From an uncultured Holophagae bacterium (GTDB lineage Bacteria; Acidobacteriota; Thermoanaerobaculia; Thermoanaerobaculales; Sulfomarinibacteraceae), in the NCBI GenBank assembly GCA_963710645.1, contig CAVQBD010000002.1, positions 138,828-202,827 of the forward strand: a stretch of DNA of 64,000 bases, given 5' to 3'. How positions within the stretch are numbered: position 1 is the stretch's first letter; each line of letters opens with the position of its first letter. The position numbers and the translations under genes are program-made. The notes below the pieces were generated by a model. That model was not told the origin of the DNA. It worked only from the letters and a program-made list of their open reading frames with translations, and ran no database searches. Below, piece after piece: positions 13,989 to 63,404 of the stretch.

Positions 13989-13994
13989 CCCCCC

Positions 13995-14010
13995 GGCACA
14001 CCGATTGCAT
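13995..14010 (+). promoter_or_regulatory. Sigma-54 (-24/-12) promoter candidate for the small Cys protein and NuoEFG-like/GltD-HdrD operon
   Basis: CGGCACACCGATTGCA. GG at 13996-13997 and GC at 14008-14009 give canonical 12-nt register against TGGCAC-N5-TTGCW. It lies about 25 nt upstream of ATG 14034. Confidence 0.6.
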
Positions 14011-14033: not shown

Positions 14034-14276
14034 ATGGCCCAGCCAATTTTCGGGAGGGGTGACTGTCAAAGTTGCCGGTTCTTCATCGACGACCCTCACC
14101 AGTTGGAGAGGGTGCTCATCGGGGTTTTGGCGCTGTCCTCCACCTACGGTTCGACCCGCGGTGACAGCGGCATCTGCACCGTCCATGACACCTTCCAGTA
14201 CCCGTTGACCGACTGCGAACACTACCGTTCCCGAGACCGGTGTTTCGAGGTGGTGGCCGGAGATGTTACGCAATAG
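14034..14276 (+). CDS. Small Cys-rich hypothetical protein (80 aa)
   Basis: ORF 14034..14276 with G/C-rich third codon positions. Motifs CQSCRFF, GICTVHD and DCEHY. It lies directly downstream of a sigma-54-type promoter and overlaps the start of the next gene. Confidence 0.55.
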   Translation: MAQPIFGRGDCQSCRFFIDDPHQLERVLIGVLALSSTYGSTRGDSGICTVHDTFQYPLTDCEHYRSRDRCFEVVAGDVTQ

Positions 14277-16416
14277 TGACGGCGCCGGGTCCGGTCAGAT
14301 GATATCCGGGAGTTGGCAGGTGCAAAGCAAAGGCTCGACCCCCCGACCCGAACATCTGGCGGAGCTGGCGGATGATTTTCTGACCAGGTGTCGAGGCGAC
14401 GGACCAGCCAACTGCGCCGCCCGCTGTCCGCTGCACGTTGATGCTCACGGCTATATGCAGTTGACCCGCCTCGGCAGGTTTCGCGAGGCATTGCAGTTGA
14501 TTCGCGAGGAACTCCCGTTTCCGGGCATCCTGGGCCACGTGTGCGTCCATCCGTGTGAGCTGCACTGCAAGAGGATCGATACCGATTCGGCCGTTCGGAT
14601 CCGTGATGTGAAGCGTTTTCTCGCCCAATGGGAGCCCGGTGACCCGCAGCACGTGACCGATTGCCTCCCGTCGAAGGAACAGACCGTGGCCGTGGTGGGC
14701 TCCGGTCCGGCGGGGCTGATTGCCGGCTATGACCTCCGTCGCCAAGGCTACCGGGTGACGATTTTTGAAAAAGAGGACCGGATCGGCGGCTGTCTGACCC
14801 ACAGGATCCCGGAATGGCGGCTGCCGGCAGATGTGCGGCAGCGGGACCTGTCCATCGTCGATGCGGTGGGACTTGCCGTCGAGACGGGTGTGGAGGTCGG
14901 GAAGGACCTCAGCCTCGGCGAGCTCTGCGCCTCCCACCACGCCGTGCTTCTGGTGGTGGGCTTCGGTGGCGGGCAAATCCTGCTCGATCGGGAATCCTCC
15001 AGCCTTCGCCGGTCGGCACGTCAGACGATAATGGTGAATCCAAACACCGGCATGTCGGACATCGAGGGTGTGTTCGCCGGTGCTGATGCCGTGACCGGGC
15101 CTGGGACGGTGATCCACGCTCTGGCGTGGGGTCGGAGGTTGGCCAGGTCGGCGGAGAAGTTCCTCGACGGCCGAGACCCGGCCGAGGACCAATGGTCCCA
15201 CCGCCCGCCACCCCTGTTGTGGCGCCTCGAGGTGGACGAGGCCGAGCGACGTCGGCGAGAGCGACCGCCGGTGATGCTGCGACCGCCTCCAGAGGAGATG
15301 ACCGAGGCCGAAGCGGTGGCAGAGGGCGAGAGATGTCTCGACTGTGTCTGTGGACTCTGCACGGTTGAGTGCGAATTCCTGGCCAAGTATTGCGATGTGC
15401 CGAGGCAGCTGGCTGCAAAGATCCGGGACGGTCCGGAGCATCACCTCGACATGGTCTATTCCTGTAACCTGTGTGGTCTCTGCCGCCAGGTCTGTCCGGT
15501 GGACCTGGACACAGGTGAGTTGATGCTCGAGGCGAGACGGCGTGCTGTGCGCAGTGGGGTCGCTCCGCTTGATCGTCACCGCAAGGAATTGCGGTTCTTT
15601 CGACTGGGCGTCTCCAAGACCTTCTCGCTGGCAGCTCCGGAGCCGGGCCGCCGCACGGCCAACAGTTTGTTCTTCACCGGTTGCTCGTTGCCGGCCTCCT
15701 CCCCTGAAAACACCCTCCGCCTTTACCAGGAACTGCGACGCCTTTCCCCCGGCATCGGTGTTCTGATGCACTGTTGCGGTGCGCCGGCATTCGCCATCGG
15801 GATGGAGGAGGAAGCTCGCTCCGCCCGGCAAAACGTGCTGGAGATGGCCCAGAGCCTCGGTGCCGACGAGCTGATCGTGGCGTGTCCCGGGTGCCAGAAA
15901 ACCCTTGACCAGCCCGATTTCGGCCTCAAGGTGCGGTCCGCCTGGCAGCTCCTGGCCGAGTCCTGGTCACCTGAGGTGGACTGGAAGGGGCTCGACGTTT
16001 CGGTGCACGATCCGTGCGTGGCCCGTCACGACGCCGCCACCCAAGACGCGGTGCGATTGCTCATCAACGGGACCGGTGCAAGGACCGTCGACTTGGAGGC
16101 CTCGGGGGAGGACACGAGGTGCTGCGGTCTTGGCGGGAGGATTGGCGGCGTGGATCCCCAGCTTTCCCGGGCGGTTGCACAACGGCGGGTGGCCGAGGCC
16201 TCGGATCCGATCGTCACCTACTGCACGAGGTGCCGGGCCGCACTGCAGAGCGGTGGGGGAGCTCCGGTCCACCTCCTGGAACTATTGTTCGCCAATGATC
16301 TGGAGAGGGCCCTGGCCAGAAAACCGCTGGGTGCCATTCGGCGCTATGCCAATCGTTTGTTGGCCAAGAGATCATTGCGCCGTGGCCCGCTCACCGGCCG
16401 GGTGCAGGGCGGATGA
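14263..16416 (+). CDS. GltD/DsrL-like NAD(P)H flavoprotein fused to an HdrD/GlpC-like module (2x[4Fe-4S] and 2 CCG domains)
   Basis: N-terminus matches the glutamate-synthase small-subunit pattern (CAARCPLHVD...FPGILGHVCVHPCELHCKR; dinucleotide fold VAVVGSGPAGL...IFEKEDRIGG). Two ferredoxin motifs follow (CLDCVCGLCTVEC, CNLCGLCRQVCP). Two CCG motifs complete it (HCCGAP...ACPGC and CCGLGG...YCTRC). Confidence 0.75.
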   Translation: MLRNSDGAGSGQMISGSWQVQSKGSTPRPEHLAELADDFLTRCRGDGPANCAARCPLHVDAHGYMQLTRLGRFREALQLIREELPFPGILGHVCVHPCELHCKRIDTDSAVRIRDVKRFLAQWEPGDPQHVTDCLPSKEQTVAVVGSGPAGLIAGYDLRRQGYRVTIFEKEDRIGGCLTHRIPEWRLPADVRQRDLSIVDAVGLAVETGVEVGKDLSLGELCASHHAVLLVVGFGGGQILLDRESSSLRRSARQTIMVNPNTGMSDIEGVFAGADAVTGPGTVIHALAWGRRLARSAEKFLDGRDPAEDQWSHRPPPLLWRLEVDEAERRRRERPPVMLRPPPEEMTEAEAVAEGERCLDCVCGLCTVECEFLAKYCDVPRQLAAKIRDGPEHHLDMVYSCNLCGLCRQVCPVDLDTGELMLEARRRAVRSGVAPLDRHRKELRFFRLGVSKTFSLAAPEPGRRTANSLFFTGCSLPASSPENTLRLYQELRRLSPGIGVLMHCCGAPAFAIGMEEEARSARQNVLEMAQSLGADELIVACPGCQKTLDQPDFGLKVRSAWQLLAESWSPEVDWKGLDVSVHDPCVARHDAATQDAVRLLINGTGARTVDLEASGEDTRCCGLGGRIGGVDPQLSRAVAQRRVAEASDPIVTYCTRCRAALQSGGGAPVHLLELLFANDLERALARKPLGAIRRYANRLLAKRSLRRGPLTGRVQGG

Positions 16417-18944
16417 CGAGCCTGAGAAACGTGCGGGTCACGGTCGATGGAACGCCGGTCGACGTGCCGGTGGGCCGCTCTCTGCTGCAGGTCTTGCGAG
16501 ATCTTCGCGTACGCGTTCCGACCCTCTGTCATGACGACCGACTCACTCCCTACGGAGGATGTCGGCTGTGTGTGGTGGATCGAAGGGACGGTAACCGCGG
16601 TCTAGTGACCGCCTGCTCCACCCCAGTGGAGGAGGGGATGGTCGTGAGGACCCGGACGCCGGAGATCGTGGAGTCCCGGAGGCGGCAGCTGCAGCTGCTT
16701 TTGCTCAACCACCGGCTCGACTGTCCGGTGTGTCAACGCAACGGCGACTGTCGGTTGCAGGACCTGATCTACGAAATCGGCGTGCCGGACGAAGATCTGC
16801 CCTTTGAATCAACCCCGGTACCGGCGGACGACCCCTCGCCGATCATCCTTCGTGATCCTGGAAAGTGCATCGTTTGCGGGCGCTGTGTGCGACTGTGCGA
16901 GGAGGTGCAGGGCGTCGCGGCCATCGGTTTCAAGGGCAGGGGATTGGAGCTGCGGGTGGCGACCTTCGACGGTCGCCCGCTGGACTGTGAGTTCTGCGGC
17001 CAGTGCGTGAACGCGTGCCCGGTTGGAGCCCTCACGACGCGGACCGACGGTTCGGATGTGCCGGCCTGGTTGCGGGAGTCGGTCACCACGACCTGCGGTT
17101 TCTGCAGTTGTGGATGCCAGCTCACCGTGGAGTCAGACGAGGGCCGGCTGCAGCGAGTGACCTCTGCGCCGGGGAGTTCGCCCAACAACGGAAAGCTGTG
17201 TGTCAAGGGGTGGCTCGGGCATGACCTCTTGGCCGACCCCGATCGGTTGACAGAACCGCTGGTCCGCCGGGGTGGTCGGCTCGTTGCTGTTGGTTGGTCC
17301 GAAGCCTTGGCAGCGGCGGTTGCCGGAATCGAAGCCGCCGCGGGTTCGGGGCGGCCCGTGGTGGGTCTTGGAAGTGGCAGGCTGAGTTGTGAGGACGGCT
17401 ATCTGCTCCAGCGGTTCATGCGGGGTGTGCTGTCGTCGCCCCACGTGGCCCTCGCCCCCACCGGTGGTGTGGAAGCGCTGGTGGACGGGCTCGGCCGGGT
17501 TCTGACCCGGGCGGCCTCCACCGGCAGTTTCCAGAGCTTGGCGGAGGCCGATCTCGTGGTGGTTCTGCGTGCGGACCCGGGCCGCACCCATCCTCTGGTC
17601 AAGACGGAGATCGTCCAAGGGGTTCAGCAGCGCGGCCAACGGCTGATTCTGGCTCACGCCCTGTCGGGTGGTCTCGAGCGACACGCCGAAAGTTACGTGC
17701 GGTTGGAGCCGGGGTCGGAGGCCGATCTATTGGGAGGTGTGACCAGGGCGCTGCTCGAAGAACGGCCGGTTCTCGAGCATCGCATCGAGGAGATTCCTGG
17801 AGCGCGGGGATTTGTCGACAGTCTGGCCGGTTACACCGAGGGTTGGGTCTGCAGGCGGACGGGAGTGCCGGTAACTGAGTTTCGCCGGCTCGTACACCTC
17901 CTACTCCAGGCCCGCCGTCCCCAGTTGGTGGTTGTCACGGGTCTCGGAATTCCCGGTGACGAGGCGGCCGTTTCCCGGGCTGCCGTTCAACTGAGTGCTC
18001 TTCTTCCTGGGAATGGGGGCGTGCTGGTGCTCGGCGAAAAGGCCAACGTTCAGGGCCTGGTGGATGTTGGAGTCCACCCCCGGCTGCTTCCCGGACACCG
18101 CCCGGCATCGGATATCTCGGCCCGGGAGGATCTGACGGCCCTCATTGGATGCGATTTTGCGACCGGCGTTGGCTGGACGGCGCGCGAGGCATGTGATGCG
18201 GCGGTGGAAAGGGAGGTGGGCGCTCTGCTGCTTGCGGGTGTGGACCCGGTGCGGAATTTCCCCAGGGAGTATCAGGGTCGTGCCGCGGTGGACGGCGCCG
18301 GATTCGTGATCTGCCTCGACGCCTTTCCCACCGAATCCGCACGGATGGCGGACGTGGTGCTGCCGGTGGCGATCCTCGCCGAGCGAGATGGGAGTACGGT
18401 GGGATTGGACGGGGTCCGGCGGTCGTTGCGGCAAGCGCTCGCGCCACCGGTTCCCTTGCCCGGGGATGGTGATCTGTTGCGCCAGCTGGCGGTTCTGATG
18501 GGGTCCGACCTACCGGCGGGGGGGCGGCTCTCCAGTGAGATGGAGCGGGTGGTGGGATGGCCCTATCCCACCGCAGCTCTCCGGCGCCTGCTGCCGGCAC
18601 CGGAATCGGGAGGCGGCCTCGGCTGGTCGGGCATCCTGCTCGATGGATCGCCTCAGCTCTTTCACTCCGGCTCGGTGACGACCCGTAGCGCGAACCTCAG
18701 GGAGCTTGCTCCGCCTGTGGCCCTGCGTCTCCATCCGGAAGATGCTCTCGAGCTGGACGTGGGAGCCGGAGACGTGATTTCGGTGGCCAGCGGAGGCCGC
18801 GAGCTCCTGCTCCGGGCGAGAGTGGACTCCACGGTCCGCCGAAGCACGGCAGTCGTGCTTTGGGGGGCGGGCCGCCACGGAGCGTCGGAGCTGATGGACA
18901 GCGAATCACAGCCGGTCGCCGTCACCCTCCGGAGGTCCCGGTGA
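16413..18944 (+). CDS. NuoG/FdhA-like Fe-S protein with a molybdopterin-oxidoreductase-like domain that appears to lack a catalytic Cys/Sec
   Basis: ATGA overlap with the upstream gene. 2Fe-2S (CHDDRLTPYGGCRLC), CPVCQRNGDCRLQ, CIVCGRCVRLC, CEFCGQCVNACP and the CGFCSCGC...GKLCVKG cluster. The stretch where FdhA has its active-site C/U-H reads SSPHVALAPTGG, by my eye alignment. Confidence 0.7.
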   Translation: MTSLRNVRVTVDGTPVDVPVGRSLLQVLRDLRVRVPTLCHDDRLTPYGGCRLCVVDRRDGNRGLVTACSTPVEEGMVVRTRTPEIVESRRRQLQLLLLNHRLDCPVCQRNGDCRLQDLIYEIGVPDEDLPFESTPVPADDPSPIILRDPGKCIVCGRCVRLCEEVQGVAAIGFKGRGLELRVATFDGRPLDCEFCGQCVNACPVGALTTRTDGSDVPAWLRESVTTTCGFCSCGCQLTVESDEGRLQRVTSAPGSSPNNGKLCVKGWLGHDLLADPDRLTEPLVRRGGRLVAVGWSEALAAAVAGIEAAAGSGRPVVGLGSGRLSCEDGYLLQRFMRGVLSSPHVALAPTGGVEALVDGLGRVLTRAASTGSFQSLAEADLVVVLRADPGRTHPLVKTEIVQGVQQRGQRLILAHALSGGLERHAESYVRLEPGSEADLLGGVTRALLEERPVLEHRIEEIPGARGFVDSLAGYTEGWVCRRTGVPVTEFRRLVHLLLQARRPQLVVVTGLGIPGDEAAVSRAAVQLSALLPGNGGVLVLGEKANVQGLVDVGVHPRLLPGHRPASDISAREDLTALIGCDFATGVGWTAREACDAAVEREVGALLLAGVDPVRNFPREYQGRAAVDGAGFVICLDAFPTESARMADVVLPVAILAERDGSTVGLDGVRRSLRQALAPPVPLPGDGDLLRQLAVLMGSDLPAGGRLSSEMERVVGWPYPTAALRRLLPAPESGGGLGWSGILLDGSPQLFHSGSVTTRSANLRELAPPVALRLHPEDALELDVGAGDVISVASGGRELLLRARVDSTVRRSTAVVLWGAGRHGASELMDSESQPVAVTLRRSR

Positions 18945-21379
18945 TTGTCCACCCCTCCGGGGTCTCCACTGGCTATTACGGATCGCAGCCATCGGTGCCC
19001 CTGGAACCTGCGGTGGTGGATCTGGTGGACGCCTTCTTGTCCGCCAATCCGGGGGGTCGGGAGAGGTTGATTCCACTGTTGCAGTGCGTTCAGGACGAAG
19101 TCGGCCACCTACCCGTCGAGGCTCAGGAGCTGGTGGCAGATCGTCTGGCCATGTCACCGATCCAGGTCGCAGGAGTGGTCAGCTTCTACGATCTGTTCAC
19201 CCTCACGCCGCGGGCACCATTCGAAATCCGGGTCTGCGCGGGGACCGCCTGCCACGTTCAGGGTGGCGAAAGGGTGCTCGATGCGCTCACCGACGCTCTT
19301 GGAGTGACTGCCGGTGGCATCTCGGCAGACGGGTTGTTCAACCTCGAGCGAGGCCACTGCATCGGTGCCTGCGCCCTGGCCCCAGCGGTGATGGTCAACG
19401 GAGTTGTCCACGGGCGAATGACGGCCGGATCGGTGCGGCGGCTGGTGAGTCGGTTGCGTCACTCGGTCAAGGCTGCGGCGGAGCGGCCCGGTTCCATGGG
19501 TGCCGTCCGGTTGAGCCCTATGGGAGGCCTGTGGCGGAGCGCCCGTTGGCTGCCGACCGATGCATCCGGTGATGAAATCGGTGTGCGCACGATCCAGATC
19601 TGTTCAGGAAGCGGTTGCCTCGCCAACGGAGCTTTGGAGGTGGCGGAAGCCCTCAAGGCCTGTCTCCGCCGGCTGCGACGGGATGGTGGCCCGCGAGGTG
19701 CTTCGGTGGATCGGGTCAGGATAGAACTTGGAATCACTGGCTGTCGTGGCTTCTGCGCCGCCGGACCCCTGGTGAAGATCCCTGAAGTCGGTGTCCTGTA
19801 CTGCGGTGTAGGGGTCGACGACGCCGACGAGATCATCCAGAAGACGGTGTTCCAGGGTCACGTCATTCCGCGGCTGATATTTGGCGGCACAACTGGCGAC
19901 GGAAGGTACCGCAGCCAAGACGATATTCCCTTCTTCTCCGGCCAACAGCGACATGTGCTCGGGCTCTGCGGTGAAATCGACCCCGAGCGTATCGAACAAT
20001 ACGAATCTCAGGGTGGTTACCTGGCACTCGAACGGGTTGTCCGGGAATTCCGGCCGGACCAGGTGATCCAGCGGGTGATGGAATCCGGGTTGGTGGGTCG
20101 AGGCGGTTCCGGATTTCCGACCGGACGGAAGTGGCAGTTGGTCGCCGACGCCCCGGACGAGACCAAGGTCGTCATCTGCAATGGTGACGAAGGCGATCCC
20201 GGGGCGTTTATGGACCGCAGCTTGATGGAGGGCGACCCCCATTCGGTGCTGGAGGGAATGGCCATAGCGGGCTATGCGGTGGGCGCCCACATCGGCTACG
20301 TCTACCTGCGCGCCTCCTACGAGATGGCGGTGAGGAGAATGTTGCACGCCGTCGCGCAGGCACGTGAGCGCGGTTTTATCGGGGACGATGTCATGGCCAG
20401 CGGATACCACTTCGATGTCCGGATCGTGCAAGGTGGCGGCGCTTTCGTGTGCGGCGAGGAAACCGCGCTCATAGCCTCCATCGAGGGGCGACGAGCCATG
20501 CCCAGGACCCGTCCGCCACATCCTGCGACCCGCGGCCTGTGGGGACACCCCACGTTGATCAACAACGTCGAGACTCTGGCCAACATCCCGCAGATCTTGA
20601 TGCCGAGAAACCAACGGGGAGCCGGCCGCGCTACGACCAAGACGTTTGCGCTCACCGGTGCTGTTCGCAACGTCGGGCTGGTGGAGGTCACTCTGGGCAC
20701 CTCCCTGCGGGAGATCGTGTTCGGCATAGGTGGCGGACTGGCCGAGGGGCGAACATTCAAGGCGGCATGGATCGGCGGACCCGGAGGTGGGTGTCTCGGA
20801 GAGCCCCAACTGGACACCCCCATCGACTATGACTCCCTGGAGGAACAGGGAGTGGCCATGGGTTCGGGTGGGTTGGTGGTGGTGGACGACCGTACCTGCT
20901 CCGTTCGGCTGGCGCGTTTCATGCTCGCGTTTTGCGTCGAAGAATCGTGTGGCAAGTGTTCGCCCTGCCGAATCGGAACGCGGGTTCTGCTCGGTCTGCT
21001 GACTCGCGTCAGCGAGGGTGAGGGGCGGGCGGGAGACCTGGAGAGAATCGAACGCCTCGGAGAACACGTGCACAGGACATCTCTCTGTGGACTGGGACAG
21101 TCGGCCCCAATGCCGGTTCTGACTGCGCTCCGCCATTTCCGTTCGGAGTTCGAATCCCACCTCAACAGCCGCAGTTGCCCCGCCGGGGAGTGCTACCGGT
21201 TGTTGGATCTGCGTATCGATGCCGAATTGTGCGAGGGCTGTGGAGACTGCGTCGTGGTCTGTCCGGAGCAGGCGATCGTGGGAGAACCCGGTTCGAGCTA
21301 CGCCATCGACCTCGACCGATGCAACCGCTGCGGGCTATGTATCCACTGCTGCCCGTACGATGCTATCGAAACAGTGTAA
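18941..21379 (+). CDS. NuoE-like/NuoF-like fusion flavoprotein with an extra 2Fe-2S domain and a C-terminal 2x[4Fe-4S] ferredoxin domain (HydB/HydC- or Bfu-type)
   Basis: GTG 18941 overlaps the upstream TGA. NuoE motif (VCAGTACHVQG...GHCIGACALAP) and a second thioredoxin-like 2Fe-2S (CSGSGCLANG...GCRGFCAAGP). NuoF motifs GRGGSGFPTGRKW, CNGDEGDPGAFMDR and SCGKCSPCR...LCGLG. Ferredoxin motifs CEGCGDCVVVCP and CNRCGLCIHCCP. Confidence 0.8.
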   Translation: MIVHPSGVSTGYYGSQPSVPLEPAVVDLVDAFLSANPGGRERLIPLLQCVQDEVGHLPVEAQELVADRLAMSPIQVAGVVSFYDLFTLTPRAPFEIRVCAGTACHVQGGERVLDALTDALGVTAGGISADGLFNLERGHCIGACALAPAVMVNGVVHGRMTAGSVRRLVSRLRHSVKAAAERPGSMGAVRLSPMGGLWRSARWLPTDASGDEIGVRTIQICSGSGCLANGALEVAEALKACLRRLRRDGGPRGASVDRVRIELGITGCRGFCAAGPLVKIPEVGVLYCGVGVDDADEIIQKTVFQGHVIPRLIFGGTTGDGRYRSQDDIPFFSGQQRHVLGLCGEIDPERIEQYESQGGYLALERVVREFRPDQVIQRVMESGLVGRGGSGFPTGRKWQLVADAPDETKVVICNGDEGDPGAFMDRSLMEGDPHSVLEGMAIAGYAVGAHIGYVYLRASYEMAVRRMLHAVAQARERGFIGDDVMASGYHFDVRIVQGGGAFVCGEETALIASIEGRRAMPRTRPPHPATRGLWGHPTLINNVETLANIPQILMPRNQRGAGRATTKTFALTGAVRNVGLVEVTLGTSLREIVFGIGGGLAEGRTFKAAWIGGPGGGCLGEPQLDTPIDYDSLEEQGVAMGSGGLVVVDDRTCSVRLARFMLAFCVEESCGKCSPCRIGTRVLLGLLTRVSEGEGRAGDLERIERLGEHVHRTSLCGLGQSAPMPVLTALRHFRSEFESHLNSRSCPAGECYRLLDLRIDAELCEGCGDCVVVCPEQAIVGEPGSSYAIDLDRCNRCGLCIHCCPYDAIETV

Positions 21380-21390: not shown

Positions 21391-22806
21391 ATGGCGTCTA
21401 CCAGCGAGACTCCGTTTGCCTATATCTTCGCCTCCGAGCTGCACGGGCGTCTGTTGTGGTTCGCGCGGCTGAGGTGGTTCGCGGTTGCGGTGCTGGCCGT
21501 CGCCTCGGTGGTCGGACCCCGATTCGGGTGGTCCGACGTCTGGCCAAGCCTCGCAATCATCGCGGGGCTCGTGGCAGTGTACAACCTGATCTTCACCAAG
21601 CGGCTCCGGAGTTATCTGCTGTGGGACAGGCCGTACCACGATCTACGAGCCGTAGCGATCGTGCAGATGCTGACCGACCTTGGTGCGCTGCTACTGGTGG
21701 TGCACTTCACAGGTGGCTGCCACAGCCCTGTGTTGCCGTTCGTGGTGTTCCACATGGCCATCGGCACGATCATGATCTCCACCCGGCTGATGTACGTGCT
21801 GGCGATGGTGACCATCATGGGCACGCTGGGATTGTTCGCCCTCGAGGGCTGGGTTCTGGAGCACCATCATCCCATCACGCCTCATACTGACGGCCTGGAG
21901 CTGTCATGCGTGCTCAACGCCGCGGTCATGGTGGTTCTGGTCTTCGGCATGGTCTACCTGACGGACACCGTGACCAGTCGTTTCAAGACCCGAGGCATCC
22001 AGCTCCACAAGACCAGCGAGCAGCTCAGATACCGGAAAGAAGAGCTCCAACAGTTGCTCCGCGAGCGTGAAGGCGTGGAGAGGCGCAAGTCTCACTACAT
22101 GCGGATCTCGGCCCACCAGTTGCGGTCGCCCCTCGGTACCATCAAGACTTCTCTGCAGGTCCTGGTGGACGGCATCGTCGATCCCGCCAGTGACGGTGGA
22201 CGGAGACTCATCGTGGGCGCCTCGGAGCGGGTGGATGATTTGCTGGAGATCGTCAACGACCTGCTGGAGCTGGCCAAGATGCGCGAGGGTCGGTTGCGGG
22301 CGCCCTGGGCTCGCCAGGTCTACATCAACCAGGTCCTGGCCGATATTTTTGACGCCATCGGACCGTTGGCCCAGGAGGGCCGGGTGGAGCTGGTGGCTGA
22401 TGTGGATGGTGTGGCGCTGCTCGACTGGGGGGTTCCGCCCGATCTGGTCTACGTCTTCGAGAACCTCATCGGTAACGCCATCAAGTACTCCCTCGAGGGT
22501 GGCGAGGTCCGGGTCAGATTGCGGGTCGAGGATGGCGTGGCGAAGGTCGAAGTGTCGGATCAGGGCATCGGTATTCCGGAAGAATTCTTGGACGATGTCT
22601 TCTTGGAGTTTGTTCGCGCGCCAAATGCCAAGAAACACGCGGCGGGCGGCACCGGTCTCGGCTTGTCCATTGTGCGCGAGGGTGTGGAGATGCACGGCGG
22701 CACCGTCGAGGTGGCAAGCGAGCCTGGCCGCGGCACCACCTTCACCGTCAAGCTCCCGTTGCATTTCGTTCCACCGGAGGTCGAGGATCGCGTCGATTCC
22801 GAATGA
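21391..22806 (+). CDS. Membrane sensor histidine kinase
   Basis: ATG 21391, inner start of ORF 21175..22806. Multi-TM N-terminus, H-box RISAHQLRSPLGT, N-box ENLIGNAIKYS and G-boxes DQGIGIP and GGTGLGLSIV. Confidence 0.85.
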   Translation: MASTSETPFAYIFASELHGRLLWFARLRWFAVAVLAVASVVGPRFGWSDVWPSLAIIAGLVAVYNLIFTKRLRSYLLWDRPYHDLRAVAIVQMLTDLGALLLVVHFTGGCHSPVLPFVVFHMAIGTIMISTRLMYVLAMVTIMGTLGLFALEGWVLEHHHPITPHTDGLELSCVLNAAVMVVLVFGMVYLTDTVTSRFKTRGIQLHKTSEQLRYRKEELQQLLREREGVERRKSHYMRISAHQLRSPLGTIKTSLQVLVDGIVDPASDGGRRLIVGASERVDDLLEIVNDLLELAKMREGRLRAPWARQVYINQVLADIFDAIGPLAQEGRVELVADVDGVALLDWGVPPDLVYVFENLIGNAIKYSLEGGEVRVRLRVEDGVAKVEVSDQGIGIPEEFLDDVFLEFVRAPNAKKHAAGGTGLGLSIVREGVEMHGGTVEVASEPGRGTTFTVKLPLHFVPPEVEDRVDSE

Positions 22807-24471: not shown

Positions 24472-24529
24472 ATCGACTATCTCAATATTCCAGAAGAGAA
24501 TTCGGTATGATGGGCGAGGAGTGCTACTG

Positions 24530-25465
24530 ATGACTATTATTACTTATATGATCGCTTACTGTGGCATCGCAATCTTCCTGGTGGCCTGCGTGGCCCGGTT
24601 CAAGATGTGGTCGAAGATGCCCATGCACCTTCGCTGGGAACTCTACCCGGTGGCCCATGAGGGTGGCGGCAGAGCCGCGTACGGCGGTTCCTACCTCGAG
24701 GAAAGTGATTGGTGGACCAAGCCTCGCAACGTCTCGCTCGTGGGCGAGGCCAAGGTGATGGTGCCTGAAATCCTCTTTCTCGAGGCTCTCAAGGAGCACA
24801 ACAACCAGCTCTGGAAGCGCTCATTCCCGTTCCATTTCGGGCTCTACCTGGTGGCAGCGTGCACCATCCTGATGATGATCAACGGCATTCTGAGCGCCCT
24901 GCTGCCGGGGCTCATGGGTGGAATCATCGGGACGCTCTTCTCCTGGATGATCCCGATCACCGGCTACGCCGGGTTGATCATGGGATTGGTGGGTGCGGTG
25001 GGTCTGATCCAGCGGCGATTCGTCAAACCGCTGCGCGACTACTCGGCGCCCGTCGACGTGCTCAACCTCGTGTTCTTCGTGGTGGCCTTTGGTACGGCCC
25101 TGGTGACAGCACTTTGGGTCGACCACGGCTTCGAGCGGGTCACCGCGTTTGTCGGAAATCTGGTGACATTCCACGTCGCCCCGCTCCCGGGAACAGGGCC
25201 GGAGGTCCTGATGCCCATGATCTCGGCCATCCTGCTCGCTCTTCTGGTGGCCTACATTCCACTCACACACATGTCCCACTTCGTGGGCAAGTATTTCGCA
25301 TATCATTCCATCCGCTGGGCAGATGAACCCAATCTCCGCGGCGGAAAGCAAGAGAAGGTCATTCACGAGTTGTTGGACCAGCCCGTGTCATGGTCGGCCC
25401 CCCATATTCAGGGTGACGGCAAGAAGACGTGGTTGGATGTCGCGACGGAGGATCAGAAGAAATGA
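24530..25465 (+). CDS. dsrM: DsrM-like membrane b-type cytochrome (NarI/HdrE family)
   Basis: ATG 24530 lies 8 nt after a GAGGAG RBS. It is a polytopic membrane protein with the NarI-like N-terminus ...RFKMWSKMPMHLRWELYP. An ATGA overlap couples it translationally to the DsrK-like gene. Confidence 0.75.
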   Translation: MTIITYMIAYCGIAIFLVACVARFKMWSKMPMHLRWELYPVAHEGGGRAAYGGSYLEESDWWTKPRNVSLVGEAKVMVPEILFLEALKEHNNQLWKRSFPFHFGLYLVAACTILMMINGILSALLPGLMGGIIGTLFSWMIPITGYAGLIMGLVGAVGLIQRRFVKPLRDYSAPVDVLNLVFFVVAFGTALVTALWVDHGFERVTAFVGNLVTFHVAPLPGTGPEVLMPMISAILLALLVAYIPLTHMSHFVGKYFAYHSIRWADEPNLRGGKQEKVIHELLDQPVSWSAPHIQGDGKKTWLDVATEDQKK

Positions 25466-27066
25466 AGCAACCTGACAGCGTCAAGGATATTTCGAAGCAT
25501 CCGGGTCAGCCGCTGGCCCAGGTCAAGCCCATGGACCTGGTGCCGCTGCCACCCCCATTCGACAAGCTGGACGAGGAACCGGAGTTCGCTCAGTTGTCGG
25601 AAAAAGCTCGGCAGCAGTACGTTGTGCTTGACGACACCATCGCGGTGAACATCAAGAACCCCGAGACCAAGGAGGAGGAGGATCGCCTCGTCCAGAGCTT
25701 CTTGACCGGCATGAAGAAGTTGTTCACGAAGGAGGACAACTGGACGTTCCTACAGCCGCTCGAGATGTCCATGGAGCATTGCGCCAAGTGCATGACCTGC
25801 TCCGAGGCCTGCCACATCTTCGAGGAGTCGAATGAGAACGAGCTCTATCGGCCCACCTACCGGTCGGAGATCATTCGGCGGATCTACTTCAAGTACATCA
25901 AGAAGGCTTCACCCCTGATCCACGGCGACATCGATCTCAATTGGACCACCGTGGGCCGTCTCATCGAATTGAGCTATCGCTGCAATCTCTGCCGGCGCTG
26001 CGCCCAGACCTGCCCGATCGGTGTGGACAACGCGTTGTTGTCACGGGAGATCCGTAAGATCGCGTCCCAGGAGATGGGAATCGTTCCGAAGGAACTCCAC
26101 GACAATGGATCAGTACTGCAGCTCGAGGTTGGGTCTTCCACAGGGATGACCCCGATGATCGTCAAGGACAACATCGAGTTCATCGACGAGGACACGGCCG
26201 AGCGTACCGGCATCGTGTACGAGACCCCATGGGATGTTGAGGGAGCCGACATTCTGCTCATCCACAACGCGGGAGAAATCATGGCGTGGCCGGAGAACCC
26301 GGGCGCCTTTGGCACCATCTTTGATGCCGCCGGTCTGAGCTGGACCATGTCGTCGGAGATCGTGGCCTATGACGGCATCAATTACGGGGTTTGGTACGAC
26401 GACATGATGTTTGCCAAGGTGGCCGTCAAGCATGCTCAGGCGGCGGCCAAGCTCGGCGTCAAGAAGATCGTGCTCGGCGAGTGTGGCCACGCGCACAAGG
26501 CGCTTACCGTGATCGCCGACAGGGTGCTCACTGGAGACCTCAACATTCCCCGCGAAAGTTCCATGGTGACCCTGCTGGATATCGTCCGGTCGGGGAAGGT
26601 CAAGTTCGACAAGAGCCGGAACGACTTCCCGGTGACCCTTCACGATCCCTGCAATCTCGTTCGACTGATGGGTGTTGTCTCGCCGCAGCGGGAGATCATC
26701 GAGGCGGTGGTGCCCGAGGGCCGGTTCCGGGAGATGGCGCCGCACGGAGTCGAGAACTACTGCTGCGGAGGCGGATCGGGCTTTGCCATCATGTCCGGTC
26801 ACAATTTCGCCGATTGGCGTCACTACATGACCGGTCGCAGGAAGTTTCGCCAGATCCTCGACGCCTTCCAGGGCGAGGAAATGGACATGGACCATCCCAA
26901 GTATCTCTGCGCCCCGTGTTCCAACTGCAAGGGCCAGATCCGCGACATCATCACCTACTACGACGCATGGGAGAAAGCCGGTATCTACTACGGTGGCCTG
27001 GTGGAGTTGATGGTCAACGCCATGGTGGATGCCCAGCCGGGCTTCATCGATTGGGAGTGGCACTAG
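25462..27066 (+). CDS. dsrK: DsrK-like Fe-S/CCG heterodisulfide-reductase-type subunit (HdrD family)
   Basis: Ferredoxin motifs CAKCMTCSEACH and CNLCRRCAQTCP. CCG-type motifs GECGHAHK, HDPCNLVR, YCCGGGSGF and CAPCSNCKGQ. Confidence 0.8.
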   Translation: MKQPDSVKDISKHPGQPLAQVKPMDLVPLPPPFDKLDEEPEFAQLSEKARQQYVVLDDTIAVNIKNPETKEEEDRLVQSFLTGMKKLFTKEDNWTFLQPLEMSMEHCAKCMTCSEACHIFEESNENELYRPTYRSEIIRRIYFKYIKKASPLIHGDIDLNWTTVGRLIELSYRCNLCRRCAQTCPIGVDNALLSREIRKIASQEMGIVPKELHDNGSVLQLEVGSSTGMTPMIVKDNIEFIDEDTAERTGIVYETPWDVEGADILLIHNAGEIMAWPENPGAFGTIFDAAGLSWTMSSEIVAYDGINYGVWYDDMMFAKVAVKHAQAAAKLGVKKIVLGECGHAHKALTVIADRVLTGDLNIPRESSMVTLLDIVRSGKVKFDKSRNDFPVTLHDPCNLVRLMGVVSPQREIIEAVVPEGRFREMAPHGVENYCCGGGSGFAIMSGHNFADWRHYMTGRRKFRQILDAFQGEEMDMDHPKYLCAPCSNCKGQIRDIITYYDAWEKAGIYYGGLVELMVNAMVDAQPGFIDWEWH

Positions 27067-28017: not shown

Positions 28018-28033
28018 GGCACGCCGGTTGCTG
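28018..28033 (+). promoter_or_regulatory. Sigma-54 (-24/-12) promoter candidate for the beta-propeller and hmc-like operon
   Basis: TGGCACGCCGGTTGCT matches the consensus at every conserved position (GG 28019-28020, GC 28031-28032). It lies about 60 nt upstream of ATG 28092, with an AT-rich tract just upstream. Confidence 0.7.
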
Positions 28034-28091
28034 TTTCTCATCGTGGAGGGAGGGATTTGCCCTCCGCTTGGCACGGAGAAAGGGAGTGGCC

Positions 28092-29354
28092 ATGGTTGAC
28101 CTGGAGGGCTGGAATTGGGAGGAGGGACGGAGGGCCGTCGCCGACGTTTCCCGACTGCGGGAGCAGTTTGCAGATGTCCATGAGTTTGCGGTCAGCGGCG
28201 ACGGAGAGGTCATCGCCGCGCCGGTGGTCGACGAGTCGGGTGGCTTTGGTGTCTGGGTCAACGGCGCACTCTGGGAGGGAGAGTTCGAGAAAGCGTGGCA
28301 TCTCGTTTTCACTCCGGATCAGCGGTTGACGGCGTTGGTCCGCGTCGACGATGAGTGGACTCTGGCGGTGGACGGAGAGCTCTGGGATCAACGCTGGGAA
28401 TTTGCCTGGAACCCGACCTTCAGCCGCGATGGTCGGGTGATTGCGTTGCAGATCAAGGACAACATGGAGTACTCGGTTGCCGTCAACGGAACGCCGTGGG
28501 ACTGCCGCTTTCCCTCGAGCCGCGGTCTGGCGGTGAGCGACGACGGCAACACCGTGGCCGCGCTGGTTCAGGTGGTTCCGTTGGCAGAGGCGGACATCGT
28601 CGGCTTCATGGATGGAACCTGGTCCATCGCGGTCAACGGCGAGCCGTGGCAACAGAAATTCATCAACGTCTACGGCCTCGCGATCAGCGAAGACGGCTCG
28701 GGCGTTGCCGCCGAGGTCCGGCTTGACATCTGCAAGTACACGCTGGCTGAGAACTCACGGCCCTGGGAGAGCCGCTTCGGGTGCGTGTGGGAGCCCGCCT
28801 ATCGAAACGGCAGCCGGAATCTCCTGGCGCCGGTGCGGGTCGAGGGCTCGTGGACAATCGCGGAGAACGGGAGCCCCATCTGGTCGAGTCGCTTCATGCA
28901 GCTGTGGAACCTGCGGCTGAGTCAGGACGGAAGGCGGCTCGCCGCGGTGGCCGCGGGGGCTTTTGGCTCGTGGACGGTGGTGGTCGACGATCGGCCGTGG
29001 CCGGTCTCGTTCAACGATTTGATCCTGCCGCCGGTCTTCTCGCCAGACGGCCGAAGGGTCGCCGCAGGAGTCCGCCATGACGGCGTGTGGAGCGTGGCCG
29101 TCGACGGTACCCGCTGGCAGGAGACCTACGACATGGTCTGGGATCCGGTCTTTGCGCCCGACGGTGCGCGGGTGGTGGCGAAGGTGGAGCGCGACAGGAA
29201 GTTTGCCGTCGCGGTCGACGGCGAGGTCCGCGGCCCGTGGTTCGAGGCGATGTGGGAACCGGTGGTGAGCCCCGATGGGCAGCGGCTGCTGGTACGGGCC
29301 GTCGAGGACGGTGTCTACACCCGCCGGGTCGTTTCGTTCGACGGTCTCGGCTGA
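28092..29354 (+). CDS. Cytoplasmic repeat protein, about 10 PD40/WG-like beta-propeller blades
   Basis: ATG 28092 follows a GAAAGGGAG RBS; no signal peptide. The roughly 40-aa unit FSPDGrrvAa.v..dg.WsvAVdG..W...fd.vWdPv recurs about 10 times (for example FSRDGRVIALQ, VSDDGNTVAAL, FSPDGRRVAAG, FAPDGARVVAK, VSPDGQRLLVR). Confidence 0.7.
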   Translation: MVDLEGWNWEEGRRAVADVSRLREQFADVHEFAVSGDGEVIAAPVVDESGGFGVWVNGALWEGEFEKAWHLVFTPDQRLTALVRVDDEWTLAVDGELWDQRWEFAWNPTFSRDGRVIALQIKDNMEYSVAVNGTPWDCRFPSSRGLAVSDDGNTVAALVQVVPLAEADIVGFMDGTWSIAVNGEPWQQKFINVYGLAISEDGSGVAAEVRLDICKYTLAENSRPWESRFGCVWEPAYRNGSRNLLAPVRVEGSWTIAENGSPIWSSRFMQLWNLRLSQDGRRLAAVAAGAFGSWTVVVDDRPWPVSFNDLILPPVFSPDGRRVAAGVRHDGVWSVAVDGTRWQETYDMVWDPVFAPDGARVVAKVERDRKFAVAVDGEVRGPWFEAMWEPVVSPDGQRLLVRAVEDGVYTRRVVSFDGLG

Positions 29355-29369
29355 TCGAGAGGAGGGAGC

Positions 29370-30017: not shown

Positions 30018-30059
30018 TGAACCGCCACCATCAACCGATACCGACTGGAGCACGGCAGC

Positions 30060-31379: not shown

Positions 31380-31382
31380 GGG

Positions 31383-60406: not shown

Positions 60407-60452
60407 CTGCTCCAATGGGCTGAGGTGTGTTTCGAAACCATCGGAGCGTGAG

Positions 60453-63391: not shown

Positions 63392-63404
63392 AAGGGAGGC
63401 CCTC

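Follow-up and report, generated by a model that had tools for sequence, protein, structure and literature searches.

A Bfu-type operon with an Hdr-like CCG module in a dsrAB-bearing acidobacterial window: a candidate NADH-linked disulfide reductase

The operon and its genomic surroundings

The window analysed here, a stretch of 64,000 nucleotides from an uncultured acidobacterium, contains an operon of four overlapping genes, all of which were confirmed as first described; like every other feature given below, they lie on the forward strand. Gene 1 (14034..14276) is an open reading frame for an 80-aa four-Cys protein of an unnamed family, gene 2 (14263..16416) encodes a 717-aa fusion in which an NfnA/DsrL/GltD-like module is joined to an HdrD-like domain and two CCG domains, gene 3 (16413..18944) encodes by domain calls and alignments a BfuA-like (NuoG/FdsA-like) subunit of 843 aa, and gene 4 (18941..21379) encodes by domain calls and matches to solved structures a BfuC::BfuB fusion. 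The overlaps of the four genes, seen in the sequence itself, are real: the last 14 nt of gene 1 also belong to gene 2, genes 2 and 3 have the ATGA at 16413 in common, and genes 3 and 4 the GTGA at 18941. The start of gene 4, placed at the TTG at 18860 in the original prediction, has to be corrected to the GTG at 18941, which has a GGAGG ribosome-binding site upstream and gives a protein of 812 aa. Moreover, a fifth gene, for a PilS-like six-transmembrane histidine kinase (21391..22806), begins with an ATG at 21391, 12 nt past the stop of gene 4; this kinase is syntenic in most related loci, and it is the only product of the operon with a membrane domain.

Upstream of gene 1, the sigma-54 promoter that had been claimed is recognizable as a -24/-12-type element, CGGCACACCGATTGCA (13994..14009), 26 nt before the first ATG. 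The 64 kb hold just three copies of the pattern GGCAC-N5-TTGC, where 0.6 would be expected, and the three sit just upstream of operons concerned with the energy metabolism of sulfur: this operon, the tmc/hmc genes (28018-28031, followed by tmcD with its ATG at 28092) and the yeiH-dsrAB genes (60392-60405, followed by the yeiH-like gene with its ATG at 60453). Of 50 related loci, about 20 have a related element within the 400 nt before the operon, in a search that tolerated C/T variation at several positions, and such an element also precedes the dsr operons of relatives (loci L084 and L081).

Downstream, a profile search reveals a pair of genes (24521..27066) for a 314-aa protein with no family match, presumed to be a membrane partner, and a 545-aa DsrK-like protein, which scores 321 bits on the DsrK model NF045796, under its cutoff of 400; the neighbour first read as dsrMK is thus a pair of the DsrM2K2-like kind. 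The pair is followed by the genes of a Tmc/Hmc complex, tmcD, tmcC, tmcB, hmcA, hmcB and hmcC (28018..35121, with the element). A yeiH-like gene, dsrA and the start of dsrB, assigned by profile matches, then occupy 60392..64000 together with their element; dsrA (62174-63391) reaches 575.8 bits on TIGR02064, whose cutoff is 392.85, and dsrB (63405 to the window end), whose protein is truncated by the window, scores 275.7 bits on TIGR02066. With dsrA and dsrB in the window itself and Tmc/Hmc after the neighbouring pair, the proposed link to sulfur metabolism is firmer than first thought.

The genes for the fusion, the NuoG-like and the NuoE/F subunits are adjacent in about 50 loci (from about 50 species-level genomes), mostly of Acidobacteriota, with two genomes labelled Methylomirabilota and Eisenbacteria. 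At least five further genomes have dsrA on the operon's contig or in the same MAG; for example, contigs with the same lengths, 967,976, 217,079 and 82,929 bp, come up in the operon and the dsrA searches, and the MAGs CAYSHZ and JANTFG carry both. Against the Dsr link, some lineages with the operon, such as the Vicinamibacterales, are not known as Dsr organisms. Among related acidobacterial dsr loci, DsrT (RsbRD_N) is found, as is a gene of 77-79 aa with no family match at the position of dsrD.

The 80-aa protein has no Pfam or NCBIfam match. Its family comprises 272 homologues of 64-141 aa, in which C11, C14, C48 and C61 are invariant, and the window member bears an LSSxxGSxRGxxGxC motif; among the 120 matches listed no Pfam domain of its own was found, and one homologue of 141 aa bears PF00753. 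About half of the related loci have the operon without this gene, a point against its being the acceptor's partner in the whole family, and it is found inside the dsr operons of other Acidobacteriota, so that it alternates between dsr and the present operon type. In loci L083 and L087 a pair of the DsrM2K2-like type lies directly between the four-Cys gene and yeiH-dsrAB. Altogether three ties connect the operon to Dsr, namely the dsrAB genes in the window, the shared sigma-54 element and the four-Cys gene in dsr operons.

Domains and predicted cofactors of the subunits

Pfam annotation, which had been proposed as a check, gave calls above the curated cutoffs. In the flavoprotein half of the fusion, Fer4_20 (65.7 bits; aa 41-124, 14383..14634) provides the ligands for two [4Fe-4S] clusters, and FAD Rossmann-type families are matched as well. 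C43, C51, C55, C94, C98, C102 and K117 are invariant among the homologues, where K117 aligns with Lys170, a ligand of cluster A7 in NfnA, whose Lys-ligated cluster has been described (PMC11829005). In the region of the FAD-binding domain (aa 141-301, 14683..15165) the alignment to 9bov_A is interrupted: residues 23-234 of the fusion correspond to 75-287 of the chain and residues 245-337 to 442-532, so that at a junction of aa 235-244 (14965-14994) the NAD(P)H-binding Rossmann subdomain of about 155 aa is absent. The same gap is seen against NfnB of T. maritima (4ylf_B) and against acidobacterial DsrL, and the homologues of the fusion, all about 710 aa long, lack the NADP(H)-binding subdomain family-wide. 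Of the GltD/DsrL-type Fe-S and FAD/NAD(P)H pattern read in the original prediction, the Fe-S and FAD part therefore stands while the NAD(P)H part does not, the pattern being that of FAD alone. The nearest solved relatives of this half are NfnA/StnC of the Nfn-Bfu enzymes (9bov_A with an E-value of 1e-59, then 9n5u_A and 8oh5_C), and AlphaFold models the fusion with confidence as one body (pLDDT 88, pTM 0.79).

The other half, in which two ferredoxin and two CCG motifs had been noticed, bears both. The HdrC/HdrD-type 2x[4Fe-4S] ferredoxin domain (Fer4_17, aa 357-416, 15331..15510) scores 28.1 bits, above its cutoff of 22.2, and all nine of its cysteines are invariant. The two CCG motifs (15667..16242) are complete, as C474-x29-C504 C505-x35-C541-x2-C544 and C585-x34-C620 C621-x32-C654-x2-C657, and CCG is matched in two stretches with 72.4 bits, well over the threshold of 20.6; their cysteines are invariant (10 of 10, in 59 sequences), as in HdrB. 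Among NCBIfam models this half is matched best by TfrB (77.6 bits), a CCG enzyme that oxidises thiols.

For gene 3, Fer2_4, NADH-G_4Fe-4S_3, Fer4_Nqo3, Molybdop_Fe4S4, Molybdopterin and Molydop_binding are called, and the ligands of one [2Fe-2S] and four [4Fe-4S] clusters (A1-A5) are 100% conserved. The catalytic residues of formate dehydrogenase, which could not be found at the first reading, are indeed missing: Sec140, His141 and Arg333 of FdhH align with G352, V353 and G541, and the Sec/Cys, His and Arg are absent from the window subunit and 40 relatives, with a Cys at the Sec position in 0 of these 41 homologues and an in-frame TGA there in none. Judged from its sequence, this subunit is a wire of clusters A1-A5 with a dead molybdopterin domain.

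Gene 4 matches 2Fe-2S_thioredx (two stretches), Complex1_51K, NADH_4Fe-4S and two Fer4 domains, arranged in the order of a NuoE-like [2Fe-2S] domain, a second thioredoxin-like domain, the NuoF FMN/NADH site, an N3-type [4Fe-4S] cluster, a CxxxxC motif and a C-terminal 2x[4Fe-4S] domain. Its top solved matches comprise 7t2r_B (E-value 1.3e-190, with query 218-810 on residues 8-595 of a chain of 597), 7q4v_B, 8a6t_B, 7p5h_B, 8oh5_B, 9bov_B and 9n5u_B; the view of this protein as a HydB/Bfu-type NuoE-NuoF fusion is borne out by its BfuB part, which aligns over the full length with chains of HydB and NfnB from bifurcating enzymes. Since the 717-aa fusion has lost its NAD(P)H subdomain, NADH can enter through the NuoF-like subunit only, and the sole pyridine-nucleotide site of the complex, with FMN, sits on NuoE::NuoF. 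A subclade in Thermoanaerobaculales has a BfuB without the ferredoxin-type C-terminal domain that the window version has, and therefore bifurcation would not be common to the whole family.

Comparison with known systems

Judged by its domains, the complex has its closest solved relative in the NfnABC/StnABC transhydrogenases, i.e. the Nfn-Bfu enzymes NfnABC of Caldicellulosiruptor saccharolyticus and Thermococcus sibiricus and StnABC of Sporomusa ovata. Both have a BfuBC core of the same type, an NfnL/GltD-like module with FAD and two [4Fe-4S] clusters, one of them Lys-ligated, the same order of flavoprotein and then NuoG/Fdh-like module with a common linker peptide behind the FAD domain, and an Fdh-like domain devoid of pterin (PMC11829005). 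Unlike Nfn-Bfu, the window system lacks the NADP(H)-binding subdomain and has an added HdrD-like dicluster and two CCG domains; moreover its flavoprotein and NuoG-like parts are separate overlapping genes instead of one NfnA polypeptide, and its NuoE and NuoF are fused.

The defining BfuB and BfuC domains of the Bfu family (HydABC-type; Schut et al. 2022, PMC9304861) are present, and a BfuA with A1-A5 fed by an extra subunit corresponds to the 'Type 3' layout of that survey. The functions given there concern H2, formate, NADP, F420, CO, pyruvate, aldehydes, aryl-CoA, H2O2 and quinone, and this list has no CCG/Hdr-type module for a third substrate on a flavoprotein adaptor; Acidobacteria are mentioned neither in its main text nor in one of its supplementary files. 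Its sole member with an Hdr-type module, of the HdrA type, is Bam-Bfu (BamB-I class II benzoyl-CoA reductase). The HdrA, MvhD-like and tungsten AOR subunits of Bam are all missing from the window operon. The Bam complex also holds a CCG-domain subunit.

HdrBC, HdrD and TfrB resemble the fusion in having an HdrC-like 2x[4Fe-4S] domain and then two complete CX(n)CCX(n)CXXC motifs; unlike these modules, the window system has no HdrA, MvhD or HdrE partner, and a fused GltD-like flavoprotein is fed by a Bfu core. FlxABCD-HdrABC of Desulfovibrio, with which the window complex would share the job of coupling NADH oxidation to reduction of a DsrC disulfide (and possibly of ferredoxin) in a Dsr organism, is a functional analogue only: the proteins are unrelated, and the window operon has neither the Flx subunits nor an HdrA flavoprotein. 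Acidobacterial DsrL (DsrL-2) has Fer4_20, FAD, the linker and a C-terminal ferredoxin domain in the order seen in the fusion, with 34% identity over the N-terminal 190 aa; however, in DsrL the NAD(P)H domain is retained (at about residues 245-399) and CCG domains are absent, the reverse of the fusion on both points.

The domain combination, not recognized as a described enzyme at the first reading, is indeed without description as a whole in the Bfu survey (PMC9304861) and the full-text literature searched, but the architecture of the fusion is partly known from a distant clade, NCBIfam NF045663 ('pyridine nucleotide-disulfide oxidoreductase/dicluster-binding protein'), with about 30% identity. 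The fusion matches this model over one unbroken stretch of 655 positions with 502 bits, below the cutoff of 530. This continuous match and a short Pyr_redox_2 in a Sporomusa homologue suggest that the clade also lacks the NAD(P)H subdomain. Its members (Desulfovibrio, Sporomusa, Clostridia) have no Bfu genes nearby; a DUF7479 zinc ribbon is fused or adjacent, and the neighbours are Mo-hydroxylase, radical SAM, rhodanese or C_GCAxxG_C_C genes.

Possible function and alternatives

The original interpretation is thus partly supported: the NADH module, the CCG motifs, the dead formate dehydrogenase site, the sigma-54 element and the sulfur link stand, and the NAD(P)H pattern falls. The explanation that we consider somewhat favoured, drawn from the sequences and by analogy, is a soluble NfnABC-like Bfu complex in which the NADP(H) site would be replaced by a disulfide-reducing Hdr-type site with an acceptor in the Dsr pathway. 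Following the NfnABC structure, electrons from NADH would pass through FMN/B1/C1 to A1, A2 and A3 of the NuoG-like subunit, from A3 through the two Fer4_20 clusters of the fusion to FAD, and from there through the HdrC-like dicluster to two noncubane [4Fe-4S] clusters, which could cleave a disulfide or related S-S bond by two electrons, as in HdrB. The acceptor would most likely be a Dsr-pathway protein that acts as a thiol/disulfide carrier, such as oxidised DsrC, a DsrC trisulfide or the four-Cys protein. In versions with the C-terminal domain of BfuB, including that of the window, reduced ferredoxin is probably co-oxidised, or ferredoxin is reduced by bifurcation, while the subclade without this domain would have a plain NADH:acceptor reductase. 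The potentials of known disulfide couples are well above -400 mV, and a reversible NAD/ferredoxin bifurcation would therefore be thermodynamically odd; the complex may simply burn NADH and reduced ferredoxin. Transcription would be sigma-54-dependent and probably in concert with that of tmc/hmc and yeiH-dsrAB.

It is unlikely, yet deserves attention, that the CCG module only relays electrons and the complex, handing those of NADH (and ferredoxin) to a quinone or to a partner that is a membrane or another protein, is a peripheral NADH:quinone or NADH:partner oxidoreductase, in the manner of EtfD, GlpC and LutA. CCG domains are mere electron relays in GlpC, LutA and SdhE, and the C-terminal half has weak NCBIfam matches to LdhH, which is quinone-linked, and to GlpC. 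Moreover its top structural match is EtfD of M. smegmatis (9ojn), in which the CCG clusters only relay electrons, as a wire to menaquinone (PMC13083937), and a conserved basic amphipathic helix at aa 691-707 (with N697, R698 and K702 kept) could anchor the protein to a membrane or a partner. However, in the non-catalytic EtfD the second Cys is replaced by Thr and a capping His is present (PMC13083937), and neither change is found in the fusion, which keeps the second bridging Cys in both motifs and has CPGC as its first CxxC without the capping His, traits of catalytic HdrB. Pfam matches nothing in the fusion beyond soluble redox domains, its AlphaFold model has no long terminal helical segment except the amphipathic one, and a membrane domain is confined to the kinase.

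A reverse flow, in which a dithiol or protein-bound sulfane sulfur is oxidised and NAD+ reduced, with or without ferredoxin, much as sHdr or DsrL would act where sulfur is oxidised or disproportionated, seems less probable still. Acidobacterial Dsr systems carry DsrL and their possible reversibility is discussed in the literature, Bfu enzymes are in principle reversible, and TfrB acts in the thiol-oxidising direction. Ordinary thiol/disulfide couples are, however, more positive than NAD+/NADH and far more so than ferredoxin, so that reduction of NAD+ or ferredoxin from thiols would be uphill and need an extra driving force. DsrT of the related dsr loci, which also have the small gene without a family match in the dsrD position, is tied by the literature mainly to reductive-type Dsr; the window DsrA, with its 575.8-bit TIGR02064 match, may be of the reductive or the oxidative type. 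That an ordinary enzyme was misread is hardly credible: FdsA chains are the best solved matches of the NuoG-like subunit (E-value 5e-86) and NfnA and StnC those of the flavoprotein half, as expected for an NAD-dependent formate dehydrogenase (FdsABG type) or an Nfn-type NADH/ferredoxin:NADP+ transhydrogenase (NfnABC/StnABC). But both are rejected at the sequence level, the former by Gly, Val and Gly at the catalytic positions with neither Cys nor in-frame TGA, the latter by the loss of the NADP(H)-binding subdomain in the whole family, and both by the CCG domains, which neither enzyme has.

If the favoured reading of a Bfu complex with a disulfide-reducing Hdr-type site is true, the operon would provide a candidate route from cytoplasmic NADH to the thiol/disulfide chemistry in the dissimilatory sulfur metabolism of a sulfite-reducing acidobacterium.

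Domain composition of the four-gene operon

The four open reading frames of the operon (14034-21379, plus strand) were translated from the window DNA and found as the original prediction had described them, and their translational coupling can be read straight from the sequence. The 80-aa ORF (14034-14276) and the 717-aa ORF (14263-16416) overlap by 14 nt, the 717-aa and 843-aa ORFs share an ATGA at 16413, and the 843-aa ORF overlaps the NuoE::NuoF gene in a GTGA at 18941, which has a GGAGG ribosome-binding site 8 nt upstream. The NuoE::NuoF gene had formerly been started at the TTG at 18860, and this start has to be moved to the GTG at 18941, because gene calling done independently on this DNA starts the gene there, with 812 aa, as the overlap and the GGAGG also indicate. 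A fifth gene, for a PilS-like histidine kinase, begins 12 nt past the NuoE::NuoF stop. Directly 5' of the operon (11511-13904), the window carries recA and a gene for a 376-aa DsbA/Thioredoxin_4-like protein with a weak match to the Rcas_1661 (seleno)lipoprotein family, and this recA/DsbA-like order is kept across acidobacterial classes. The HMM domain annotation proposed for the operon gave Pfam scores far over the curated cutoffs.

The fourth gene shows two 2Fe-2S_thioredx stretches, Complex1_51K, NADH_4Fe-4S and two Fer4 domains, with 422 bits to TIGR01959. More specifically, the NuoE-like BfuC part with its C1 [2Fe-2S] is matched by PF01257 at aa 58-199 (whole-protein score 163.5 bits), and a second PF01257 stretch represents the N-terminal thioredoxin-like domain of BfuB (the B2/B5 site, [2Fe-2S] or Zn); then follow the NuoF FMN/NADH domain (PF01512, 161.1 bits), the N3-type [4Fe-4S] B1 (PF10589, 103.8 bits) and the C-terminal 2x[4Fe-4S] domain of B3/B4, with Fer4-type matches at aa 785-837 as counted in the 839-aa reading of the protein. 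This last ferredoxin-type domain does not occur in non-bifurcating homologues. The top solved match is HydB (7t2r_B, E 1.3e-190; query 218-810 against 8-595 of the 597-residue chain), followed by 7q4v_B, 8a6t_B, 7p5h_B, StnB and NfnB of two species, so that the protein aligns over its full length, C-terminal 2x[4Fe-4S] domain included, with B subunits of structurally proven bifurcating enzymes, in support of the predicted HydB-type NADH module; NuoF and FdsB, which do not bifurcate, have much lower scores and are without the termini. The BfuB and BfuC domain set that defines the Bfu family (Schut et al. 2022) is present, and every family feature that sequence can address, in the domains and clusters of BfuB, BfuC and BfuA, was found in the window complex.

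The third gene carries the full NuoG-type set of domains together with Molybdopterin and Molydop_binding, and among solved structures it matches FdsA-type formate dehydrogenases best. An NAD-dependent formate dehydrogenase of the FdsABG/FdhH type, which is defined by a Sec/Cys that binds Mo/W, a His next to it and a catalytic Arg, is nevertheless rejected for the window complex, where all three are missing: Sec140, His141 and Arg333 of FdhH (1aa6_A) align with G352, V353 and G541. The original prediction had searched in vain for this Cys/Sec-His site, and its absence is confirmed by alignment of 41 homologues from related loci, all of which have Gly at the Sec/Cys position and none of which has Arg at the Arg333 position. 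The 41 sequences agree in every ligand of a [2Fe-2S] cluster and of four [4Fe-4S] clusters (A1-A5; 100% conservation), and their cluster domains are better conserved than the molybdopterin-like part. This seemingly dead part has its parallel in NfnA, whose pterin site is incomplete and empty (PMC11829005). The NuoG-like subunit is a wire of clusters that corresponds to BfuA with A1-A5.

The N-terminal half of the 717-aa fusion most resembles the NfnL/GltD-like domain of Nfn-Bfu transhydrogenases. Its Fer4_20 domain scores 65.7 bits in Pfam, its best sequence matches are 9bov_A (E 1e-59) and then 9n5u_A and 8oh5_C, namely NfnA/StnC chains of Nfn-Bfu enzymes, and a fold search with the predicted model (pLDDT 88, pTM 0.79) returned the same top matches. 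By residue alignment, fusion residues 23-234 correspond to 9bov_A 75-287 and residues 245-337 to 9bov_A 442-532, while about 155 residues of NfnA in between (9bov_A 288-441; about 238-386 in 4ylf_B) have no counterpart in the fusion, which has ten residues instead. Alignment with T. maritima NfnB (4ylf_B) or with an acidobacterial DsrL, whose NAD(P)H domain (residues about 245-399) remains unmatched, leaves the same gap; the piece absent from the fusion is the NAD(P)H-binding Rossmann subdomain of NfnA, NfnB and DsrL. As all homologues have about 710 aa, the whole family has this deletion. The FAD motifs, the Fer4_20 ligands and K117 are kept, invariant in 59 homologues, with the FAD-motif residues G146, G148, G151 and D275 invariant or nearly so, and K117 aligns with Lys170 of 9bov_A, a ligand of NfnA cluster A7. 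Therefore, of the FAD/NAD(P)H pattern formerly assigned to this half, the FAD part stands and the NAD(P)H part falls with the deleted pyridine-nucleotide subdomain. The module of FAD and two [4Fe-4S] clusters, of which one has a Lys ligand, is alike in NfnABC/StnABC; however, those enzymes have an NADP(H) Rossmann subdomain by the FAD, and with this subdomain deleted both an NADP-linked Nfn transhydrogenase and a glutamate-synthase-like enzyme are excluded.

The C-terminal half carries the CCG domains (PF02754, 72.4 bits against a cutoff of 20.6), and both motifs proposed earlier are over the HMM threshold and complete: C474-x29-CC-x35-CxxC and C585-x34-CC-x32-CxxC, with 10 of 10 cysteines invariant in the homologues and spacings slightly outside the textbook ranges of the HdrB/HdrD reference pattern CX(31-39)CCX(35-36)CXXC. 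Beside them lies an HdrC-like 2x[4Fe-4S] domain with invariant cysteines (PF13534, Fer4_17; 28.1 bits against 22.2). The best NCBIfam match of this half is TfrB and its best solved fold is mycobacterial EtfD, where the CCG clusters are only a wire, for two reasons: the first motif has Thr as its second Cys position, and the other cluster is capped by a His in the first CxxC (PMC13083937). Neither change occurs in the fusion, where CCG is kept in both motifs and the first CxxC, CPGC, has no capping His, and because both are absent the site is of the catalytic HdrB kind by sequence criteria; as in HdrB/HdrD, the putative bridging second Cys is kept in each CCG. The only curated model of the fusion is NCBIfam NF045663 (diclust_near_Sec), for which the window protein lies just under the cutoff (502.3 bits against 530, model positions 664-759 unmatched); the window fusion is a member of a sister clade.

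Distribution of the operon and of the four-Cys gene

More than 950 relatives of the fusion were found in the protein collection, and in about 50 loci, on contigs with one genome per species, the fusion, NuoG-like and NuoE/NuoF genes lie side by side. These loci belong to Holophagae, Thermoanaerobaculia, Vicinamibacterales and other Acidobacteriota, with one Methylomirabilota and one Eisenbacteria MAG outside the phylum, and in them recA and the DsbA-like gene usually stand before the operon and the kinase gene after it. Most of these loci have NuoE and NuoF as separate ORFs; the fused form occurs in the window and in two related loci (L001 and L003). In a Thermoanaerobaculales subclade BfuB ends just past CxxxxC and lacks the ferredoxin-type 2x[4Fe-4S] domain; such short genes, mainly from Thermoanaerobaculales, are seen in loci L015, L020, L027, L029, L047 and L053, with the CxxxxC absent in L015. 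Most short-BfuB loci have no recognisable four-Cys ORF directly upstream of the fusion, L053 being an exception by tblastn. In one long-read MAG contig (L081, 7001-14318), genes for a histidine kinase, an NtrC-type regulator and a porin stand before the operon, the call for the HdrD-like gene has 488 aa and no flavoprotein half, and the NuoG-like gene is broken up into several pieces; these gene calls are probably due to a frameshift error.

A distant clade of the fusion, with about 30% identity, occurs in Desulfovibrio, Sporomusa and Clostridia and corresponds to NF045663; no Bfu genes were found near it. Its members are accompanied by a DUF7479 zinc ribbon, fused or adjacent, as in a Desulfovibrionaceae and a Sporomusa locus (L054, 7149-15036; L057, 9399-14909), and have Mo-hydroxylase, radical SAM, rhodanese and C_GCAxxG_C_C genes as neighbours. 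In these two loci the Mo-hydroxylase is MOP-like and the radical SAM enzyme bears an HMPTM zinc ribbon, and the Sporomusa C_GCAxxG_C_C gene (12898-13389) is two genes downstream of the fusion homologue.

The small four-Cys gene lies 5' of the fusion in the window, in L084 and in about one in two related loci. Moreover, its homologues are found within dsr clusters of other Acidobacteriota. In two such loci (L083, 7001-7252; L087, 6001-6231) the order is C_GCAxxG_C_C gene, small gene, DsrM-like, DsrK-like, yeiH, dsrA and dsrB, with the four-Cys gene overlapping the DsrM-like gene 3' of it, and in a third (L086, 6001-6252) it is C_GCAxxG_C_C gene, small gene, yeiH and dsrAB; the C_GCAxxG_C_C genes, directly 5' of the four-Cys gene, are at 5932-6711, 5204-6004 and 4759-5649, respectively. 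The C_GCAxxG_C_C proteins are named 'putative redox-active'. In two further loci (L078, 7608-7823, minus strand; L080, 5403-5681, minus strand) the small gene stands between dsrKMOP-type genes and yeiH-dsrAB, and these come from the same two MAGs (CAYSHZ and JANTFG) whose Bfu operons are without it. One orphan context was also seen (L082). The gene thus alternates between this operon and dsr operons.

As to what the 80-aa protein is, two known families come into question. DsrT is a protein with an RsbRD_N domain encoded next to dsrM (PMC8477390), and true DsrT genes of this kind (171-216 aa) are present in two acidobacterial dsr loci, L088 and L089, while the 80-aa protein has no Pfam match and so is not DsrT. 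Kinship with the DUF7479 zinc ribbon of the Desulfovibrio/Sporomusa clade was also considered and rejected, as the motifs differ and Pfam gives no match. The AlphaFold model of the protein (pLDDT 62) is too poor for a fold search. The four-Cys family is an unnamed, Dsr-associated one, distinct from DsrT and DsrD.

Dsr genes and sigma-54-type elements in the window

The window contains dsrA (62174-63391, 405 aa; TIGR02064 575.8 bits against a cutoff of 392.85), preceded by a gene for a YeiH-like putative sulfate exporter (ATG at 60453) and followed at the window end by the 5' part of dsrB (62174-64000 for both); with dsrA and the start of dsrB in hand, the source organism is a Dsr-carrying acidobacterium, to which Holophagae MAGs are the nearest species-level genomes. 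For such Acidobacteriota, a recent discovery, activity in peat and wide occurrence in marine sediments are reported. A DsrM2K2-like pair lies 3 kb downstream of the operon; its reading as a split EtfD is rejected, since it matches M. smegmatis EtfD (9ojn) weakly (E 5.6e-05 over 68 aa) and NCBIfam prefers DsrK. In peatland Acidobacteria, dsrM2K2 paralogues 5' of dsrAB and unnamed syntenic genes have already been noted.

Further on lies a hybrid tmcDCB-hmcABC operon (27810-35121), where TmcD (493 bits), TmcC and the 16-haem HmcA are over their cutoffs, TmcB reaches 706 of 735 bits, and HmcB and HmcC are also encoded. Compared with Desulfovibrio, it is unusual for Tmc and Hmc subunits to be combined in this way. 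The window also encodes, both on the minus strand, an unusually long SulP sulfate permease of 1201 aa with several STAS stretches (41809-45414) and a TauE/SafE sulfite exporter-like protein (38968-40062).

Co-occurrence of dsrA and the operon in relatives was judged by proxy, through identical contig sizes and common MAG accession prefixes. DsrA homologues lie on contigs of 967,976, 217,079 and 82,929 bp, which are the exact sizes of contigs with fusion homologues, and the CAYSHZ and JANTFG MAGs carry the Bfu operon on one contig and a full dsr cluster on another.

The predicted sigma-54 promoter is represented by a GGCAC-N5-TTGC element 26 nt before the small ORF. The window has exactly three copies of this strict core, at 13995, 28018 and 60392, all on the plus strand, where 0.6 would be expected; 3 of 100 shuffles come to that number. 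The other two copies are 61 nt before tmcD and 48 nt before yeiH-dsrAB. The evidence for these putative promoters is confined to the core, as a looser pattern with up to two mismatches gives 24 matches in the window where 25.7 are expected, so that it is not enriched and is uninformative. The same element is found 5' of dsr operons and of this operon in relatives. Altogether, these placements suggest that the Bfu-Hdr, tmc/hmc and yeiH-dsrAB operons may form a common sigma-54 regulon. Two sigma-54 activators are encoded in the window, an NtrC-type response regulator (3476-4864) and a protein with PAS, AAA+ and HTH domains (within 54976-57720). An IS-type integrase with rve domains (58303-59109) sits between the latter gene and yeiH-dsrAB, unlike in the acidobacterial locus L089, where activator gene and yeiH-dsrAB are adjacent. 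The link to sulfur metabolism, which had been proposed from the neighbouring dsrMK, is thus strengthened by dsrAB in the window, by the common promoter element and by the four-Cys gene in dsr operons.

Proposed electron path and meaning for the Bfu family

To sum up the parts, what is established from the sequences is the inventory of cofactor-binding sites, with a single NADH site and no NADPH or formate sites, a CCG site of the catalytic type, and the conservation of the operon. The complex is put together from parts already known, namely a Bfu core, an NfnA-type adaptor and an HdrD site, and by analogy would work as they do. In NfnABC the path runs from FAD through A7, A6, A3, A2 and A1, then through B1-FMN-C1 and then to B3/B4 (PMC11829005). 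Following that structure, the same wire would here be used in the opposite sense, from NADH at the FMN to the FAD of the fusion, and from there electrons would pass to the HdrC-like dicluster and to the noncubane pair, where an S-S bond would be reduced. As no hydride donor or acceptor reaches it, the FAD of the fusion would be a converter between one- and two-electron steps, or a relay.

Coupling to ferredoxin is likely in the window version, which has B3/B4; it is not universal, because the Thermoanaerobaculales subclade is without that domain, and this argues for electron flow from NADH to the acceptor as the core chemistry, with an acceptor whose potential equals or exceeds that of NADH, as expected of a disulfide. 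On genomic grounds the best candidates for this acceptor are DsrC(ox), DsrC trisulfide or the four-Cys protein. A more far-reaching reading, in which the complex is an HdrA-independent heterodisulfide reductase with flavin-based bifurcation, its FAD a second coupling centre and the four-Cys protein a new carrier of the Dsr pathway, seems to us, with all these parts taken jointly, rather improbable. According to it, the FAD without an NADPH site would be reduced one electron at a time, like the FAD of HdrA, and would be placed in series with the FMN site of the Bfu core; in the Dsr pathway of Acidobacteriota, the four-Cys protein would have the part of a dithiol/disulfide (or sulfur) carrier, served both by the membrane DsrM2K2 and by the soluble NADH/ferredoxin-linked enzyme.

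It is still debated how cytoplasmic NADH and ferredoxin are coupled to the thiol/disulfide chemistry of DsrC, with Flx-Hdr, DsrL and Nfn among the proposals. The operon offers a concrete and conserved candidate for that coupling, under a sigma-54-type promoter element that it has in common with dsr genes, and it brings to light the unnamed four-Cys protein family. No description of the combination was found by full-text searches, in the Bfu survey or in papers on acidobacterial and global Dsr organisms. That survey lists no third substrate of thiol/disulfide type (PMC9304861), and the operon would add one to the Bfu family. Here a transhydrogenase scaffold seems to have been re-tooled, with the NADPH domain deleted and an Hdr site grafted on, and the complex, whose function is a predicted one, may be of relevance to anaerobic bioenergetics and to sulfur cycling.
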